Shown here: one piece after another, positions 4,101 through 56,956 of the stretch
How positions within the stretch are numbered: position 1 is the first letter of the stretch
Layout: every line of letters begins with the position of its first letter
Assembly: GCA_963667755.2 (NCBI GenBank)
Contig: CAXXLK010000004.1
Location: forward strand, 839,739 to 903,738
Source of the DNA: Desulfobacterales bacterium
Lineage (GTDB): Bacteria > Desulfobacterota > Desulfobacteria > Desulfobacterales > 4572-123
Reading direction: 5' to 3'
Length of the DNA: 64,000 bases
Notes under the pieces: generated by a model
Told to the model about the DNA's origin: nothing
Databases searched by the model: none
What the model saw: only the letters and a program-made list of their open reading frames with translations
Translations under genes and position numbers: made by a program

Positions 4101-4928
4101 GCCCCCACAACCGATCTTATTTTGCTGCTCAAATATCTTGCCGGTCGCCTTCCCGTGGCGGATTTCGAGCTTGATTTCAACAAAAAGGGCACAGCCCTGA
4201 ATATGATTGATGCATTGTTTGAATACCTGGGCAAAGCCATCAATAAAACGGCCCGGCCCATCGACGCCATCAAACACCAGGCCAAAACCGTTACGGTGGG
4301 GACCAGTCGCATCAGCACCGCCATTGACGGTATCCTGTTTGACGCCCTGAGCGCCCACGACCTGACCGTCTCCCAGCTTGCCAACCGGAACGTGATCGTA
4401 CTGAAAAATCTTCAGGCCGTGGTGGAACGTATTCAGGGGGGCATCCTGTATAAGATCGGGGGGCTGAATTCGCTGGGAGAACTCACCGATGATACCACCA
4501 TTGAGGTAAAGAAGAAATCCGGTGTATTAAAACCCATTCCGTCACGGGTTGAAACCGATACCCACCTCAAGGGAACCAAAAGAATCATCATAAAAGACGG
4601 TAACGTCTATATCGGCAAGGGCCGCAAGGATAACCGCAGCATCATCGTTATCCCGGTGATGTCCGCCATACCCGATACCGCCAATATGATTGAGTACCTG
4701 CTGCTGCTGAATATCGCCCTTAAAGAAAATATCCCGCTGACCGCAAGGATAAAAGCCCTGGGGGGAAAATATGATCATATCAAAAATCTGGTACAGGAAA
4801 ACTCCATCGCCTGGGAAGACCGTCTGCTGGATGCCATTGCCACAGACCAGCTTTTTGGCAAATCCGCTGAAAAGATAGCAGAGACAATTGTCTCCGGACT
4901 GACCCCCGGTTCATCCCTCAACACATAA
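1179..4928 (+). CDS. Very large GlmS-like glutamine amidotransferase/SIS-domain protein (1249 aa)
   Basis: CGLAG, LEVRGRDSAG, HTRWAS, NCHP, LNGDIDN, TDTK (GATase-2); ISQSGTT, VASTKAF, IKLSELCY, KKH, AKTVTV (SIS/isomerase). Large insertions and extensions. Confidence 0.85.
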   Translation: MNTVHCTVVFLKRLVDRLRSFLPGGIYWGRSLAHAPRGSLVFFPYRNATFCCGLAGIVSFKPPKDRVPPTIDVDAMLAMTATIKSQVLKTVSSDSRDFASDYLGGQALVTDFSEKVQALKEDEQFSKIYFNHSLQSRLNSIADQLTAVVDSESLHIAAVSGHVDTHRFAVMSRQMEMLKDIAWCLRFELLNNIKKVRHLTAGATDDPSMETVAILKKINAVLNSIDRLEVRGRDSAGFSLLFVMAPQEFDLFQIALGKKKLVEPLADRMAESVLVNNSIRIQKRAGQNVSIAFVYKIAAEIGCLGDNVIHLRWQISNDPILQTLLGFTHRYHTVSSHTRWASVGAITEPNCHPVDNITTGDLGDPGGIIHICLNGDIDNFPDLKLEYEQNGGVIDRQITTDTKIIPLQIEKYIKMGNCVEEAFRLAVNDFKGSHAISMHTDLAPGKFFLAQRGSGQAIFVGLARNHYMPASEVYGFIEETSDYLKMDGEKIITGKKGPTQGQIFILDQDSTGGISAIQAMFYDKTVIPLGDDDIKHTDITSRDIDRREFPHYFLKEISESPRCVAQTLENRWKISKSDPGRHLIALDETVIPPALADALAQNRIKRIFFIGQGTAGVAAQVCSDILCHYMADPSIQVTAFKASELSGFKLGNDSKTGMADALVIAISQSGTTTDTNRTVDMVRERGAHTLAIVNRRDSDITFKVDGILYTSSGRDIEMSVASTKAFYSQIIAGALLSLFIADIKGCRTADFISREIEKLIKIPSQMRQVLALKDKIRTSAQRHATDKTYWAAVGSGPNKASADEIRIKLSELCYKTISSDFIEDKKHIDLSSEPLIIICAAGAGDTVIGDIIKDTAIFQAHKATPIVIADEGENRFTPYAADLFQVPRISPHLSPILNTLAGHIWGYYAALAINDNSRFLHQFREEIQKNLDDYATQGLNVYEVILEKSFREKFVRFYKEFRLKIAQKQFPTAIAPTTDLILLLKYLAGRLPVADFELDFNKKGTALNMIDALFEYLGKAINKTARPIDAIKHQAKTVTVGTSRISTAIDGILFDALSAHDLTVSQLANRNVIVLKNLQAVVERIQGGILYKIGGLNSLGELTDDTTIEVKKKSGVLKPIPSRVETDTHLKGTKRIIIKDGNVYIGKGRKDNRSIIVIPVMSAIPDTANMIEYLLLLNIALKENIPLTARIKALGGKYDHIKNLVQENSIAWEDRLLDAIATDQLFGKSAEKIAETIVSGLTPGSSLNT

Positions 4929-4988
4929 CCGGTTCACGCCTCACTTTTAGTATCTTGATACTGAAATTCGTGTTTTATATGTCAAAAA

Positions 4989-5195
4989 AAATAACAATAA
5001 TCAAAAGACAAATTACAAACAAATCACAATGATTAAAATTCCAAAACAGGGAGAAATCAAAATACACAGCAATTCAAGACTATATGGGATTAATCAAATG
5101 GCTTTTGATCTTGTTTGAGATTTGAACATTGTAATTTGGAATTTGTTTGGCATTTGGAGTTTGTAATTTGTGATTTCCGGTTTATCCGGGTTAGG
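4989..5195. repeat. Heptamer-repeat inverted-repeat element (AAATNNC units / GNNATTT units)
   Basis: Left arm aaataac-aataatc-aaaagac-aaattac-aaac-aaatcac (4989-5048). The reverse complement of 5113-5176 is aaatcac-aaattac-aaactcc-aaatgcc-aaac-aaattcc-aaattac. Ends with tccggtttatccgggttagg. Confidence 0.7.
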
Positions 5196-5205
5196 GGACG
5201 CCATC

Positions 5206-6675
5206 ATGCTGAAATTACAATCCGTTAATTTAAAAAAAGACCGCATGGAAACACTGGTCATTCCGGTTTGTGAAGACCGGCAACTTCATGAAAACAAAAC
5301 CATTAAAGCGCTCATTGCCGAGGCTGAAAAATTTCAAGAGTTTGCCGGGGAAAAAAAAGATGAAATCATTTTTTATTCTTTTCCCGAAATCAACACCGGG
5401 CATATTCTGTTCCTGGGGATTGGTAAATTTAAAGACCTCACAACCGGCACCCTGCGGGAAGTGTCCGGCAGGGCCGTAAAAAAATGCATTAAAATAAAAC
5501 GGGAAAGCTGTCATATCGCGGTTCCTTCGGCCAGAAAAACGGGGCTTCAGGCGGACCTGATGCTGGAAGCCATGCTGGAGGGGGCCTGTCTTGGCAACCA
5601 TATCTTTGATCACTATAAATATAAAAAAAAAGAAGCGCCCCTAAAGGAGATGACCCTGATCGCAGGGCCTTCAACAGTAAAAAAATTCAGCCATCTCCCC
5701 TTTCAGGTGTCGGCTGCATGTGCCGGCACCATTCTGGCCCGGGAGTGGGTCAGCACCCCGTCCAATGACAAAACACCGGCAAAATTCGCCAAATCCATTA
5801 TGGAAAAGGCCGGGGCAACCCATTTGAAAATAAGTGTGCTGGATGAAAAAGAACTAACACGGAAAAAATTTGGCGCATTGCTGGCGGTGGCCGCCGGCAG
5901 CCAGAACCCACCGCGGTTGATGATACTGGAACATAACCCCGAAGGCGCCACCAAAACCATTGCCTTGGTCGGCAAGGGCGTCACGTTTGACTCGGGTGGT
6001 ATTAATCTGAAACCCTCCGGATCACTGGACGGCATGAAGATGGATATGGCCGGTGCCGCTGCAGTGGCCGCCACCCTGATTGCCGCATCAAAACTGGACC
6101 TTGACCTCCATATTGTCGGTGTTCTCCCGCTGGTGGAAAACATGCCTTCCGGCAGCGCGACCCGCCCCGGCGATATCGTATTGACCTACGCCGGTAAAAC
6201 CGTGGAAATCGGAAATACCGATGCCGAAGGCCGCCTGATTCTCGCGGATGCCATGGCATATGCCATTGAAACCTTCAAGCCCCGGGTAGTGGTGGACATG
6301 GCCACCCTCACCGGCGCCTGTGTGGTGGCGCTGGGTGAAAAGATTGCCGGCGTTTTTTCACCGGACAAAGCACTGGCCGGCGCCATTGTCGAATCCGGCA
6401 AAAAAACAGGCGAACGCTGCTGGCACCTGCCGTTGCCCGAAGATTACAGGGAACTGCTCAAAAGCGACCTGGCCGACTTGAACAACATGAGTAGCTCACG
6501 CTGGGGCGGCGCCATCACGGCAGCCCTGTTTTTATCTGAATTTACCGGGGACACACCCTGGGTCCATATTGATATTGCCGGACCGACGCTGATCAAAAAA
6601 CCCGATGCCTGCTGCACGGCCGGCGGAACCGGTTTTGGCGTGCGGCTGCTTCTGGACTGGCTGAAAAGCCTATAG
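5206..6675 (+). CDS. pepA: Leucyl aminopeptidase (M17)
   Basis: VGKGVTFDSGG, MKMDMAG, NTDAEGRL, DMATLTG, HIDIAG motifs. ATG 5206 follows aggggacg. Ends in TAG. Confidence 0.95.
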   Translation: MLKLQSVNLKKDRMETLVIPVCEDRQLHENKTIKALIAEAEKFQEFAGEKKDEIIFYSFPEINTGHILFLGIGKFKDLTTGTLREVSGRAVKKCIKIKRESCHIAVPSARKTGLQADLMLEAMLEGACLGNHIFDHYKYKKKEAPLKEMTLIAGPSTVKKFSHLPFQVSAACAGTILAREWVSTPSNDKTPAKFAKSIMEKAGATHLKISVLDEKELTRKKFGALLAVAAGSQNPPRLMILEHNPEGATKTIALVGKGVTFDSGGINLKPSGSLDGMKMDMAGAAAVAATLIAASKLDLDLHIVGVLPLVENMPSGSATRPGDIVLTYAGKTVEIGNTDAEGRLILADAMAYAIETFKPRVVVDMATLTGACVVALGEKIAGVFSPDKALAGAIVESGKKTGERCWHLPLPEDYRELLKSDLADLNNMSSSRWGGAITAALFLSEFTGDTPWVHIDIAGPTLIKKPDACCTAGGTGFGVRLLLDWLKSL

Positions 6676-30533: not shown

Positions 30534-32027
30534 CTATTTAATCACGCCGAGTTCCTTTTCCGTCTCACGGATGATCTCCTCAATCTCCTTTTGCGCCTGA
30601 CTGCTGATCGGGATGGGCCGATGGGTCTCGACCACGCTTCTGGCTTTTTTCAACGCCCTTTCATGCAGGCTTTGCTCTCCTTTGGACCTCCAGCTTTCGT
30701 AGGTTTCCCGGTTCATCAATTCGGGCGACATGAAATCCTTGCAGTGGGCAAAGGTACTCGGGTGCGCAAGATAGTTCCCGCTGTGGCCCACCGCCTTGAT
30801 GAGATTCACCGACAGGGTTTCCGCATTGATCTCGAATCCTTTGACCAGATGGGTAATGGCCCGGTTGATTTCGTCGTCCATCAATAACTTTCCGTAGTCC
30901 AGGGCCATCCCGCTGTCCACCATCCCCGTTCCGTAAATCAGATTGGCACCTGCCAATGCTGCCGGAAGGGAGGTCAACAGCGATTCAAAACCTGCCTGGG
31001 CATCGCACAGTTTACTGTCCACCTACCCGCCGGAGACACGCACCGGTATGTGGTAATGCCGGCCCATCTGGGTCAGGGCCGCGTTGAGCAGAGCGCCTTC
31101 CGGTGCACCCACCGCCGCCATGCCGTAACGCAGGTCGAGGGATGTCGTGGAACTGGAGTAAAACATGGGGGCTCCGGGTCGCACCAATTGTCCCAGCGCC
31201 AGGCCACTGAGCACTTCGGCATTGTGCTGCACCACGGTGCCGGCCAGATGGACAGGTGCCGTGCCACCGGCCAGGCACATGGAAAGCACGCTGGTGGTGA
31301 ACCCGTGCTCCACGGCGGCCATGAGGACCTCACTGCAATCGTCCACCAGTTGCAGCGGGCTGACCACACAAACCCCGGTGAAAAAAAACGGCCGCCGGCG
31401 AAAGGTCTCCCGGCCCACGGCGGCTTCTCCGATGGCTGCCATTTTGGGAATCAGATTGGCCGAAGGAGGGATGGCCTCCACCGGTTTGGTCGTGTTGCCC
31501 AGCATGGCCGCCAGGGTATGCAGGGTTTCCGTCACCGGGGATTCATCGGTGGCGTTCAACATGGAGATTAAAATCTTCAGACTATCCAGCGTATCCATGA
31601 CCCGGGTGACCTGGGCCACATCCGCTTTCAGCGCTTTTTTGCGTTTTCCGGTGTAAAGATCGTTGAGATATACGGTACTGCCGAAATTGACGAATCCCAG
31701 CCGGTCACCGCCCATGGTATAATCCCGGGACGGATCACGGCCCGGAATGCAGATTTCCGGCGGAATGGTGGAAAGCGCCTTCTCGATAAGAGTCGGCGGC
31801 AGATAGATGCAATTTTTGTTTTTGTCAACACGGGCTCCGTGACCGGCAAAAACGGACTGGGCCTTTTTGCTGGTCACCACAACCCCGGTTTGTTCGAGCA
31901 GTTCCAGGCTGGCCTGATGAATCCTGTTGCAATCTTCGCTGCTGAGCGCCCGCAGCCGCAGCGCGCCGGGGGGGGCCAGTTTAATTTGGCTTCTGTCGGC
32001 AGCCGTTACTGCATGCTGGGTTAACAT
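30534..32027 (-). CDS. mttB: Trimethylamine:corrinoid methyltransferase with in-frame TAG (pyrrolysine), 497 aa on read-through
   Basis: ORFs 31023-32027 and 30534-31022 are contiguous in one frame, separated only by TAG at 31023-31025: VRVSGG-TAG-VDSKLCDAQAGFES. This is codon 335 (Pyl334 in Methanosarcina MttB). RBS aaggaggg. Confidence 0.88.
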
Positions 32028-44891: not shown

Positions 44892-45003
44892 TAAAATCTC
44901 CTTGGTTGGGTGCGGCTTGATAGTGAATGGTCAATATCCAATGATAAGCAGGAATACCTGTGAAAGCAAGGCCTGTAATGAGACTGGTTATCGGTTGACG
45001 GTT

Positions 45004-45833
45004 TCCGGGTAAAGGCACCGGTTACCCGGCGCCCTCCCCACAGATCCGTACGTGAAGATTTCCCTCATACGGTTCCTCGGTTCAGATCCTTTTTACCGGA
45101 TCGTCAACCTGACAGGCGACACCCCGTCAGGCGTATAACTCTGCTCCCCATATCGCAGTTTACAGGGATTCCGGTGACATGATTTGTGGCCTCGGTGTGC
45201 CTCTCATCTTTCCTTCCTGTAAAACGTTATACCCTGCTTCACCTTCCCTACAGTGGGTCGCTTTGGGTGCCACTTCCCCACCTTACCGTCTCGTGTTTAT
45301 ACCCCGAGACATCGGTACTATGATCCGCTAAGACTTCCGAATGTCCATCCCGGGATTGTTCGCTTTTGGCTATCCGCACCCGGTACCTATGTCGTATTCA
45401 TAGGAAACATTCGGACCTCCCGAGTTCCCGAGTCACCCCCATGAGAGCATGCCCTGGTCTCAGACCCCGGTGGTGTCCTGCATACTTGCCATAGCGCATA
45501 CAGGACTGCTGCCTTCCATGTTTTGCACCACGTCGGCTTTCCCCTGTCTCCAGGTTTATCCAATGACCACGACTATACATTTTTCGGGGCTCAATACAGA
45601 GCCTGCACCCTTGATCCATCCGGCTCCAGACTCCCGTCTCCGGGTTTACCTGCGGATTTCACTACTGACCCGCTGGATCGGCTTTGGTCAGGTGGGACTT
45701 TCTTAACCTCAACGCCAGGGCAAGCCCTGCAAGAAGGAAGACGGTTTTACGGCCGCCCGATCACCCACTGGGTAACATTATCGAATTTCAAAGATCTCTC
45801 TTATTCCGACGATTCGGATTTAGCTCGGCGCGA
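45004..45833 (-). mobile_element. ORF-less group II intron (about 830 nt; ends accurate to a few nt)
   Basis: Minus strand DV GAACCGTATGAGGGAAATCTTCACGTACGGATC; DVI GGGGAGGGCGCCGGGTAACCGGTGCCTTTACCCGG; DI motifs GAAAGTCC, TGAGCCCCGAAA, GCCGAC..GGAAGGCAGCA; GGAAGTCTTAGCGGATCATAGTACC at DII/III; no RT ORF. Confidence 0.88.
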
Positions 45834-45896
45834 ACAAAACAAAGGTATGGGGGTATAGACAAACTGTAAGCCGTAAGCCGATAACCGTGACCTGTA

Positions 45897-53196: not shown

Positions 53197-53923
53197 AAAA
53201 GGCAGTGATGCCATCATCTTTCCCCTGGATGTGCCTTCGGTGGAACAGGCCCGGCACTATGTGGAACTGCTGGGTGATTATGTGGGGATGTTCAAGGTGG
53301 GACTGGAGCTGTTCATCCGGTCGGGCCCGACGCTGATCCGTCTGATTCAAGACAGCACCCGGGCCGGTATTTTTCTGGATCTGAAACTGCACGATATCCC
53401 GGCCACCGTGTTCCGGGCCATGGAAAGAATTGCCGATCTGAACGTTGATCTGGCAACGGTTCATTGTGGTGAAAACGCCAGCATGCTGGAAGCCGCCGTC
53501 AAGGGCAGCCATAGCCGGGTGGGGGTTCTGGGCGTAACGGTGTTAACCAGCGTGGACAGCGACGATATCCGCCGGGCCGGGTTCCGACAGGAATATTGTG
53601 ACACCCTCTCTGCCCTGGTAATGAAAAGGGCTGCCATGGCCAAAGCCGCCGGGTGCAGCGGCGTGGTCTGCTCGGGTCTTGAAGTCAAAGCCATCAAGCA
53701 ACAGCTGGGGAAAAACTTTTTAGCGGTCACTCCGGGTATCCGGCCCCTTAGCACCATTGCCGGCCAGGATGACCAGCGCAGAATTACAACGCCGGCCCAG
53801 GCCATTGCCAACGGATCCGATTATCTTGTTATCGGGCGGCCCATGCGGGATGCCGACGATCCGATCTATGTTGCCGAAAAGATCGCCCGGGAGATTGAAA
53901 ACGCCTGGACAAATGGGCATTGA
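53168..53923 (+). CDS. pyrF: Orotidine-5'-phosphate decarboxylase
   Basis: KVGLELF, FLDLKLHDIPATV, VTVLTS, TPGIR, VIGR. Confidence 0.95.
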   Translation: MDNTSTIKNKKGSDAIIFPLDVPSVEQARHYVELLGDYVGMFKVGLELFIRSGPTLIRLIQDSTRAGIFLDLKLHDIPATVFRAMERIADLNVDLATVHCGENASMLEAAVKGSHSRVGVLGVTVLTSVDSDDIRRAGFRQEYCDTLSALVMKRAAMAKAAGCSGVVCSGLEVKAIKQQLGKNFLAVTPGIRPLSTIAGQDDQRRITTPAQAIANGSDYLVIGRPMRDADDPIYVAEKIAREIENAWTNGH

Positions 53924-54195
53924 AGGCTGAAGGCTTGAATACTTAAGGTATGTTCACACAGGGAATATCGAATGTCGAGGACCGGTAATTTTAGAAACCA
54001 AAAAAATACCGACTGCCAATAAAAATCAGAATACAGACACCAAGAACCAGCACAAAAAGCAGTTGATCCTGTTTAAACCGTTTCATGAGCCCCCGGCCAA
54101 CTTTCCATGCTCTCGTAAACGTTATTTGAGATAGTTAAGTAAAAAATCGTATATACCGGTAGAAGGAGGCCTTCTACCTTCAGCCTTCTACCTGA
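53921..54195. repeat. Heptamer-repeat inverted-repeat element (TGAAGGC / CCTTCTA units)
   Basis: tgaaggc-tgaaggc starts at the pyrF stop; ccttcta-ccttcag-ccttcta at 54170-54190; internal aatatcg-aatgtcg. Confidence 0.6.
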
Positions 54196-54257
54196 GATAA
54201 AGTCGAGTCTCTGGACAACCGTTATAGCAAAGTAGGCGGAGACTTTTTACGACGCCA

Positions 54258-56682: not shown

Positions 56683-56753
56683 TTAAAACTCCTCGCCCGG
56701 TAAGTGATCACGTTTACCACAATGGTTTATCATTATTGCCGTTGCACTTTAAT

Positions 56754-56913
56754 ACTTAAATTGAGCGATTAGCAGTAAGCTTTTAGCACAATAATTTCAA
56801 AATATTGTCAAATGCCACCATTTCACCCATTGGGTAAAAATCGCATTGCCGTTAAACGCTCAAAATATAAGCTCTAACTGCTAATGGCCAAGAGCTAATC
56901 GCTCATTTTAGGT
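56754..56913. repeat. Heptamer-repeat inverted-repeat element (NNNTAGC units)
   Basis: acttaaattgagc-gattagc-agtaagc-ttttagc; the reverse complement of 56869-56913 is acctaaaatgagc-gattagc-tcttggc-cattagc-agttaga. Confidence 0.7.
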
Positions 56914-56956
56914 AATAGTCTCGTAAAAAGTCAAATTGTTACGAAACCGTCACCTT

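Follow-up and report, generated by a model that had tools for sequence, protein, structure and literature searches.

Bacterial MITEs (miniature inverted-repeat transposable elements), such as the Correia/NEMIS elements of Neisseria, are small, non-coding and multi-copy; they lie between genes, fold into hairpins and vary among strains. Repetitive extragenic palindromes (REP) with their REP-associated tyrosine transposases (RAYT), as well as elements derived from the IS200/IS605 insertion sequences (IS), carry a short hairpin by a conserved end tetranucleotide and insert beside a fixed 4-mer. Repeats of 7-nt units are also known, the cyanobacterial short tandemly repeated repetitive (STRR) sequences being heptamers. 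Here we describe E1, a dispersed repeat with inverted arms built from degenerate heptamers. It was found in a stretch of 64,000 nt, hereafter the window, from a Desulfobacterales bacterium (contig CAXXLK010000004.1, positions 839,739 to 903,738). E1 lies in a 277-nt spacer between a gene for a protein with GATase and SIS domains and pepA, the gene of a leucyl aminopeptidase (M17). It is the first of four heptamer hairpins flagged in the window, the others being called the second, third and fourth elements. E1 is probably a non-autonomous, MITE-like mobile element and one of about 47 copies of a genus-specific family.

In the full-text literature, a single paper combines the terms ‘heptameric repeats’ and S23p (PMC4990558). 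Its passages on the intervening sequence (IVS) of the Coxiella 23S rRNA describe tandem GACAGAT heptamers that precede the S23p open reading frame (ORF) and vary in number among strains, an RNase III site at the first heptamer repeat and a stem of terminal inverted repeats. In the same passages the IVS is termed selfish, and is tolerated through its removal by RNase III (PMC4990558). As far as these passages go, the 23S IVSs of Coxiella, Leptospira and Salmonella share with E1 a stem of terminal complementary sequences around a loop. This loop is either empty or occupied by an ORF for a four-helix-bundle protein (S23p/PF05635) (PMC4990558). Unlike an IVS, E1 is located between protein-coding genes and not in rRNA helix 25 or 45, and Rfam finds no rRNA in the window. 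E1 also has additional conserved end modules and a conserved core, about 47 copies and a weak stem (71% complementary, and predicted only).

Two other heptamer systems are comparable. In the passages of a Xanthomonas study, 70 and 75 convergent pairs of GGGAATC arrays are counted in two genomes and read as G-quadruplex repeats; their lengths vary among related genomes and most pairs stay between the same genes (PMC4692102). These pairs resemble the present arrays in being intergenic and convergent, but the passages mention neither a shared core nor a cargo gene, and they describe no junctions of insertions (PMC4692102). In addition, the present units are A/T-rich and unable to form a G-quadruplex, unlike GGGAATC. 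TAACTGA arrays of Beggiatoaceae, Cyanobacteria and Bacteroidetes are reported, in the sections that treat them, as 169 direct sets and 1 inverted set, with mobility suspected and its mechanism not known (PMC4679880). They are like the present arrays in being intergenic, often just upstream of start codons, and patchily spread. However, they consist of one fixed, mostly direct heptamer, whereas many heptamers in inverted pairs are found here (PMC4679880, same sections). Neither heptamer-armed cassettes outside rRNA nor gene-less families of them were found in the full-text literature, the coverage of which does not extend to subscription journals.

E1 is a dispersed sequence family. The genome holding the window (6.02 Mb, 4 contigs) is named G000 below and its four congeners G001 to G004. 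A BLAST search with the E1 spacer (E<=1e-5) gave matches at 47 loci of G000, over at least 185 nt in 22 of them. A query limited to the core (5030-5128) gave about 30 loci with 81-96% identity, a top match being C2:692438-692527 (95.6% over 90 nt). Copies occur in both orientations and show an intergenic bias, 39 of the 47 overlapping crude ORFs by 30 nt or less. With respect to co-directional neighbouring genes, 18 copies are sense and 14 antisense; 10 others are between convergent genes and 5 between divergent ones. Alignment of the 20 longest copies fixes the ends of the unit, which therefore exceeds the arms and spans 4951-5194. These copies show a common order. A flanking TTAG or close variant is followed by a left module ending in CTAAATTCTGAAATTCGTGTTTTTTATGTC plus an A-run and by the AAATNNC arm; next come the non-repetitive core, in some copies a 14-nt segment, the inverted arm, in some copies a piece GCGGCGTACGCC...CAACAGCG, and finally the right module CCGGTTTATCCGGGTTAG, beyond which similarity ceases. 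The first-pass annotation had described such hairpins as defined by structure and periodicity rather than by sequence. This is not supported, since both E1 and the fourth element belong to sequence families in which cores and ends are conserved.

The end modules are specific. The right one has 48 matches in G000 at three mismatches or fewer, mostly after E1-type right arms, as compared with 4 for the reversed motif; the left one has 52 blastn-short matches, and 6 with the reversed query. Both modules also border hairpins of another heptamer family (GTGAAAA type), the left one preceding such hairpins at C1:147832, at C2:2090502 and also in G002. E1 matches are present in the four congeners (44 in G001, 48 in G002, 43 in G003 and 21 in G004). 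In the other families of the order, 36 genomes were searched and 8 gave matches, 7 of them in arm regions only, with the core excluded; the core-spanning exception outside the genus, G035, matches positions 41-227 at 70%. Contigs of three cultures end inside E1, where the summed depth is 10-40x that of the flanks, in keeping with a repeat.

No entry of 40 aa or longer in the ORF list falls entirely inside E1, so that the label ‘cargo-less’ given to it earlier is correct. Its inverted arms pair 4989-5029 with 5136-5176 (41 nt, 71% complementary). Both include AAATTACAAAC with its short AAAC unit, in an 18-nt pair that is 89% complementary. The AAAC unit had been noticed before and taken for a phase slip shared by the two arms of this copy. 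It is indeed in both arms, but AAATTACAAAC and its AAAC are conserved across family copies and thus belong to the inherited family sequence.

Comparison of orthologous sites shows that E1 has been gained, lost or replaced within the genus. Upstream of pepA, G001 (97% protein identity) has E1 plus a variant segment of 14 nt, the spacer of G004 is 70 nt long and free of any element, G003 has an NNNTAGC-family hairpin whose core matches the fourth window element and G002 has other sequence. We traced 27 other G001 copies to G000, at sites with 90-100% flank identity. Eleven are shared, 13 are either absent or shorter by 90 nt or more, one is replaced in G000 by a GCTAANN-type element and two could not be placed. 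One copy absent from G000 (L056) sits inside a TGAAGGC hairpin that is intact in G000. Presence/absence polymorphism, proposed earlier as a check on mobility, is therefore observed together with replacement.

The 14-nt segment (ACC.AATTTTAAGATCAGGT type) is what distinguishes the orthologous E1 copies of the window (5118-5124) and of G001:C37 (L017). It is present in 8 of the 20 aligned paralogous copies. Its variable presence among both orthologues and paralogues points to conversion among copies or to a renewed insertion.

At two of the absent sites the junctions are clean. At L064, G000 reads ...TTTAG/GC... where G001 reads ...TTTAG/element...TTCAG/GC..., and at L040 TTAG flanks the element on both sides. 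TTAG is thus on both sides in 2/2 clean filled/empty pairs, and, as judged by eye, 12 of the 20 real copies have TTAG, TTAA or TCAG as their left-junction 4-mer. Because TTAG is also fixed at the element end, target duplication and site-specific insertion look the same for E1. E1 would have been spread by a host- or IS-encoded enzyme cutting at TTAG, either a DDE transposase producing a 4-bp YTAR-type duplication or an HUH (Y1) enzyme inserting 3’ of TTAG.

The heptamer hairpin itself is real. Among lags 4 to 12, lag 7 is the strongest in 8/8 arms of the four window elements, with p from 0.001 to 0.039 (1000 dinucleotide shuffles for each arm). For E1, the lag-7 fraction is 0.54 in the left arm (0.43 shuffled, p=0.039) and 0.62 in the right arm (0.35 shuffled, p=0.001), and Tandem Repeats Finder (TRF) calls period 7 in the right arm only, not in the left one. 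The inverted 7-nt-unit arms first seen at 4989-5176 are thereby confirmed. E1 differs from phase-variable repeats by its degenerate units (72% matches in TRF), and it could be linked neither to a promoter nor to a reading frame.

At the genome scale, 66 lag-7 arrays were counted in the 0.886 Mb of intergenic DNA of G000, as defined by a crude ORF map, where ten dinucleotide shuffles gave 0-3 (mean 1.1). Arrays at lags 5, 6, 8, 9, 10, 11 and 13 numbered 0-16 in the same DNA, and the 5.13 Mb of gene-internal DNA contained 20 lag-7 arrays. Whole-genome lag-7 counts agreed whether filtered or not. Ungapped matching of arms under-detected pairs, so that local alignment was used, with a score of at least 26 as the cut-off. 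An inverted partner within 1.5 kb was then found for 64 of 227 lag-7 arrays, compared with 6/227 for the reversed query and with 0/48, 7/69, 3/59 and 4/40 for arrays of lags 8, 10, 11 and 13. Merging gave 48 inverted pairs, with spacers of at most 250 nt in 29, of 251-600 nt in 11 and longer in 8. The array detector recovered one arm of E1 and one arm of the second element, with no pair above the cut-off, and neither the third nor the fourth element, so these array and pair counts are lower bounds. The scan for period 7 and inverted repeats against shuffled controls that the first-pass annotation had called for thus gives a clear enrichment of heptamer-armed inverted architectures.

Such arrays might have arisen in place by polymerase slippage, the inversion being due to chance or to local duplication-inversion, without any mobility. 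Bacterial heptamer repeats are over-represented and this is ascribed to slippage in passages of the Xanthomonas study (PMC4692102). Slippage does occur here, as orthologous copies can differ by a number of complete heptamers: at L116, a locus of the fourth-element family, the copies of G001 and G000 differ by 21 nt, exactly three units. However, 47 loci at unrelated sites share a non-repetitive core and end modules, clean filled/empty junctions exist, and the excess of inverted partners over the control (64/227 vs 6/227) is large. In situ slippage as the whole explanation is highly improbable. Within a mobile E1, replication slippage inside the hairpin would rather keep the arms alike and repetitive.

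E1 is like MITEs in being small, non-coding and multi-copy at unrelated loci. It departs from them by its arms of degenerate 7-nt units, by extreme ends that are not inverted and by the lack of a parent IS among the Y1 loci examined. Several observations weigh against a MITE-like mobile element. The inverted arms are internal, whereas the extreme ends, TATCTTGATACTG... and ...CCGGTTTATCCGGGTTAG, show no inverted relation, and family copies do not conserve the left-end hairpin that the window copy has. The closest full-length match among G000 copies is about 91% and no near-identical pair exists, hence no very recent burst is visible in G000. Clean junctions are limited to 2 absent sites; at the others, unrelated sequence of 4-133 nt is present, so that deletion or replacement is possible there, and the absent site of L096 retains a remnant of the right module. 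No parent with E1 ends was found among the Y1_Tnp loci examined (11 loci for motifs and 13 for flanks; DDE transposases were not surveyed). The resident IS200-type elements have hairpins unlike that of E1 and a right end TTTAC. Copy orientation shows no bias relative to the local sign of GC skew (22 to 25, p=0.77), in a genome whose skew is weak (genes 533 to 467) and whose four contigs leave the replichores uncertain. The fold of E1 is weak as well, with z = -1.84 for the whole spacer and a second value of -1.50, both against dinucleotide shuffles. Per copy, z ranges from 0.1 to -5.1 in 17 of 18 copies, the eighteenth reaching -11.3 through an extra nested hairpin. RNAalifold, run on 15 of the 18 both-arm copies after leaving out 3 with large insertions or deletions, gave 20 consensus pairs, an energy of -3.6 and one double-sided change, from copies that are 75-95% alike and carry little information.

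With respect to the mobilising enzyme, E1 could move as single-stranded DNA by means of an IS200/IS605- or RAYT-type Y1 (HUH) transposase that inserts 3’ of TTAG, the right-end hairpin plus TTAG being the cleavage signal. E1 resembles REP/RAYT and IS200/IS605-derived elements in having an end hairpin that adjoins TTAG. Its ends are asymmetric, without terminal inverted repeats; TTAG is found to the left of E1 and at its right end, where it comes 1 nt after the small hairpin. IS608-type elements reportedly insert 3’ of a tetranucleotide. G000 has 29 Y1_Tnp matches, and they include an IS200-type element of 665 nt with tnpA only, whose three copies (C2:1771621, C2:2216879 and C1:477809) are each directly 3’ of TTTAG. 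On the other hand, the differing hairpins and TTTAC end of these copies and the absence of strand bias relative to the weak GC skew speak against a Y1 route. E1 also differs from IS200/IS605 or REP elements in that its subterminal hairpin is conserved at the right end only. Moreover, none of the Y1 genes examined is flanked by E1 ends, and the Y1-like genes have other repeats, in contrast to a REP/RAYT system. About 20 G000 genes encode 312-351 aa proteins with an N-terminal Y1 transposase domain, between inverted flanks of the GGGGACG(T/C)CCAT type in a RAYT/REP-like layout (for example C1:660417-661424, C1:1067460-1068476 and C2:2459826-2460842). Finally, the sister family of the fourth element has terminal inverted repeats and varied duplications of 5-6 bp, which is a DDE signature. 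A Y1 enzyme is therefore a doubtful candidate for E1.

Directly 3’ of E1, window positions 5195-5205 read GGGGACGCCAT, which resembles the GGGGACG(T/C)CCAT-type repeats found around the Y1-domain genes.

The position of E1 before pepA raises another possibility, in which selection maintains E1 chiefly for a function as a cis-acting RNA element and its multi-copy spread is secondary. Candidate roles would be an intercistronic stem-loop for processing or stabilisation, a partial terminator of the upstream gene or a leader controlling pepA translation. Between the right module and the pepA ATG there are 11 nt, and the AG that closes the module makes up, with the flanking GGGA, the only Shine-Dalgarno-like sequence there, whereas congeners without E1 have an unrelated AAGGAA. 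The last bases of E1 would thus form part of the pepA ribosome-binding site. More generally, a start codon (ORF of at least 80 codons) follows the right module by 3-16 nt in 10 of 48 cases, compared with 336 of 5565 intergenic TTAG sites (6%), which hints at target preference or selection. Copies are also under-represented between divergent genes (5/47). A 223-nt contig from a metatranscriptome library covers 4833-5054 with 1 mismatch and bridges the upstream gene and the left arm; it is no proof of transcription, as such libraries may contain DNA. Against an RNA function, orientation relative to co-directional genes is nearly indifferent (18 sense, 14 antisense), the fold is weak and without covariation, a search of Rfam gives nothing inside E1, whether gathering thresholds or E<=1 are applied, and there is no excess of promoters or terminators (2 promoter-like sites for 1.4 expected, no terminator). 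In addition, the pepA site is bare or differently filled in congeners that have the same flanking genes. A primarily regulatory E1 is thus unlikely. As a mobile element, E1 would when co-transcribed fold into an imperfect stem-loop that is tolerated and possibly cleaved by RNase III, as an IVS is.

The final TTAG of the right module CCGGTTTATCCGGGTTAG is often part of a Shine-Dalgarno-like TTAGG(A/G).

E1 is related to gene-bearing cassettes. In G000, 11 TIGR02436 matches are found at 10 loci. Seven of these loci are between inverted arms with a lag-7 fraction of at least 0.5 on both sides, one is borderline and two, both with partial genes, have no arms. All four cargo ORFs tested belong to PF05635 (E from 1e-10 to 2e-34). 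One cassette, at C2:2236429-2237028, encloses an ORF assigned to PF05635 (2.7e-18), and each of its two arms is matched by the right arm of E1. Judged from this alignment, the arms of E1 are homologous to those around a four-helix-bundle gene of the PF05635/TIGR02436 type. The cassettes and E1 thus have the same arm architecture and, at this locus, the same arm sequence. They differ in that E1 has no loop gene and that the examined cassettes, this one included, are devoid of the E1 left and right end modules. The window is not among the 11 TIGR02436 matches of G000, and without such an ORF E1 is at most a gene-less derivative of a cassette. It would be a gene-less relative of the heptamer-armed four-helix-bundle cassettes, and these in turn may resemble the ORF-bearing 23S rRNA IVSs.

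Heptamer flanks had been expected around both TIGR02436-type and GxxExxY genes. This was borne out for the former, at 7/10 loci. All four GxxExxY (TIGR04256) genes of G000 have inverted flanks that score 21-55 (nulls 14-20), but these flanks lack period 7 (lag-7 fraction 0.00-0.45). The genes are at C4:998006-998350, C4:961302-961655, C4:1004094-1004435 and C2:49442-49771. By eye, their flanks are built of repeat units longer than 7 nt, such as CACAGAG.. units about 10 nt apart. The GxxExxY loci may represent a parallel cassette type.

Inverted pairs with wide spacing (more than 600 nt) were also considered as cassettes and rejected, because the ORFs they enclose are ordinary host genes (ArsA-like ATPase, gas-vesicle proteins, protein C of the type II secretion system, a cohesin-domain protein). 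We read such pairs as separate arrays in neighbouring spacers. The gas-vesicle region of G000 at C1:723-747 kb (GvpA-type, GvpK, ArsA-like ATPase) has TTGATTG/CAATCAA arrays in many successive spacers, and it also contains two PF05635 cassettes, one of them broken.

Table 1. Features of the E1 locus and of the three other heptamer-repeat elements of the window (window coordinates)
Feature	Position	Strand	Basis or remark
GATase/SIS-domain gene, 1249 aa	1179-4928	+	upstream neighbour of E1
TTAG, target or duplicated site	4947..4950	+	adjoins E1 left end
E1 whole unit, ~245-nt gene-less dispersed repeat (244 nt in window)	4951..5194	+	BLAST, family alignment
E1 left end module, consensus nnnCTAAATTCTGAAATTCGTGTTTTTTATGTC + A-run	4951..4988	+	conserved in family alignment
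E1 left heptamer arm, units AAATNNC	4989..5045	+	lag 7, inverted relative to right arm
E1 core (loop region), non-repetitive, conserved	5046..5108	+	core-query matches
E1 right heptamer arm, units GNNATTT	5109..5176	+	lag 7, TRF period 7
E1 right end module CCGGTTTATCCGGGTTAG, with GTTAG and a small CCGG/CCGG hairpin	5177..5194	+	genome motif matches
pepA, leucyl aminopeptidase (M17)	ATG at 5206	+	downstream neighbour of E1
Second element, left heptamer arm GGTTNNC	44985..45008	+	lag-7 fraction 0.71, p=0.002
ORF-less group II intron, 837 nt, at loop/arm junction of second hairpin	44997..45833	-	Rfam
Second element, right heptamer arm	45862..45893	+	lag-7 fraction 0.64, p=0.001
Third element, left array TGAAGGC	53920..53948	+	lag-7 fraction 0.55, p=0.007; absent from this site in G003
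Small hydrophobic 31-aa ORF MKRFKQDQLLFVLVLGVCILIFIGSRYFFGF, between third-element arrays	53991..54086	-	host gene, not cargo
Third element, right array CCTTCNN	54158..54198	+	lag-7 fraction 0.50, p=0.001
Fourth element, terminal inverted repeats CTTAAATTGAGCG...CGCTCATTTTAGG, arms NNNTAGC	56755..56912	+	sequence

The four hairpins of the window had been grouped as empty members of one cassette system. They turned out to be four different situations: end modules by TTAG (E1), a hairpin into which an intron has inserted, two arrays that flank a host gene, and an element with terminal inverted repeats and a 5-bp duplication. Synteny with G001:C37 ends near 29.9 kb of the window, and the second to fourth elements were located in the congeners by separate searches. 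Of the cassette proposal, the part that concerns E1 finds support in its arm homology and lack of an ORF; it fails for the second element, which holds the intron, and for the third, which holds a host gene.

In the second element, the insert matches the Rfam group II intron families RF02005 (99.9 bits) and RF00029 (42.1 bits). At the corresponding site, G001 has the hairpin uninterrupted, shorter by exactly 837 nt, and G003 and G004 have no hairpin. Two more copies of the intron are found in G000 with 99.9% identity, outside heptamer hairpins, and fragments with 97-99% identity are found at contig ends in G003. Targeting of heptamer hairpins by the intron was considered and rejected, the two other G000 copies being in unrelated contexts. 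In the third element, the right array is largely a local hairpin, GGTAGAAGG/CCTTCTACC. The small ORF between the arrays is downstream of an aspartate kinase gene and is kept in G001 to G004 with or without the arrays. As the enclosed ORF is kept in 4/4 congeners irrespective of the arrays, this element was discarded as a cassette.

The fourth element is similar to a classical MITE, with terminal inverted repeats plus a target duplication. It is flanked by direct TAATA repeats (56750-56754 and 56913-56917), a 5-bp target duplication, and it is absent from its window site in G001, G003 and G004. Its core is found at eight or more other loci of G000, and the family has about 10 matches in G001 and more than 35 in G003. 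Three filled/empty pairs of this family show duplications of 5-6 bp (GTTTAA, ATTCAC and AAATA).

Other sequences of the window were noted. Near the fourth element, about positions 56919-56955, there is only a remnant of another small repeat, whose terminal inverted repeats (GACGGTCTCGTAAAAAG...CTTTTTACGAGACCGTC) are perfect. This repeat fills the pdxJ-ybeY spacer of G001:C6 and the spacer next to the aspartate kinase gene of G004:C83 (loci L080 and L081). Elsewhere, at 30926-31025 on the minus strand, Rfam identifies PYLIS_3, the pyrrolysine insertion sequence of mttB (67.7 bits). It spans the junction of the minus-strand ORFs 31023-32027 and 30534-31022, which suggests that the two ORFs are mttB read through an in-frame TAG as pyrrolysine.

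Two old puzzles stand without a mechanism, namely the excess of intergenic 7-nt repeats in bacteria and the origin of the hairpin intervening sequences of rRNA. A tentative but possible view is that heptamer-armed hairpins constitute a distinct and widespread class of selfish DNA, with PF05635/TIGR02436 genes as the only cargo, and that this class explains both the origin of 23S IVSs and the heptamer excess. The PF05635/TIGR02436 protein would perhaps read the 7-nt periodic arms. Continual rebuilding of the arms by slippage would give each lineage its own heptamer, and derivatives without a gene, E1 among them, would spread in the manner of MITEs. With cultured relatives, dozens of copies, filled and empty sites, and arms shared by gene-less and gene-bearing forms, the junctions, the enzyme and the fate of the RNA are tractable. 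For genome annotation, E1-type elements remodel ribosome-binding regions, as at pepA, and break assemblies.

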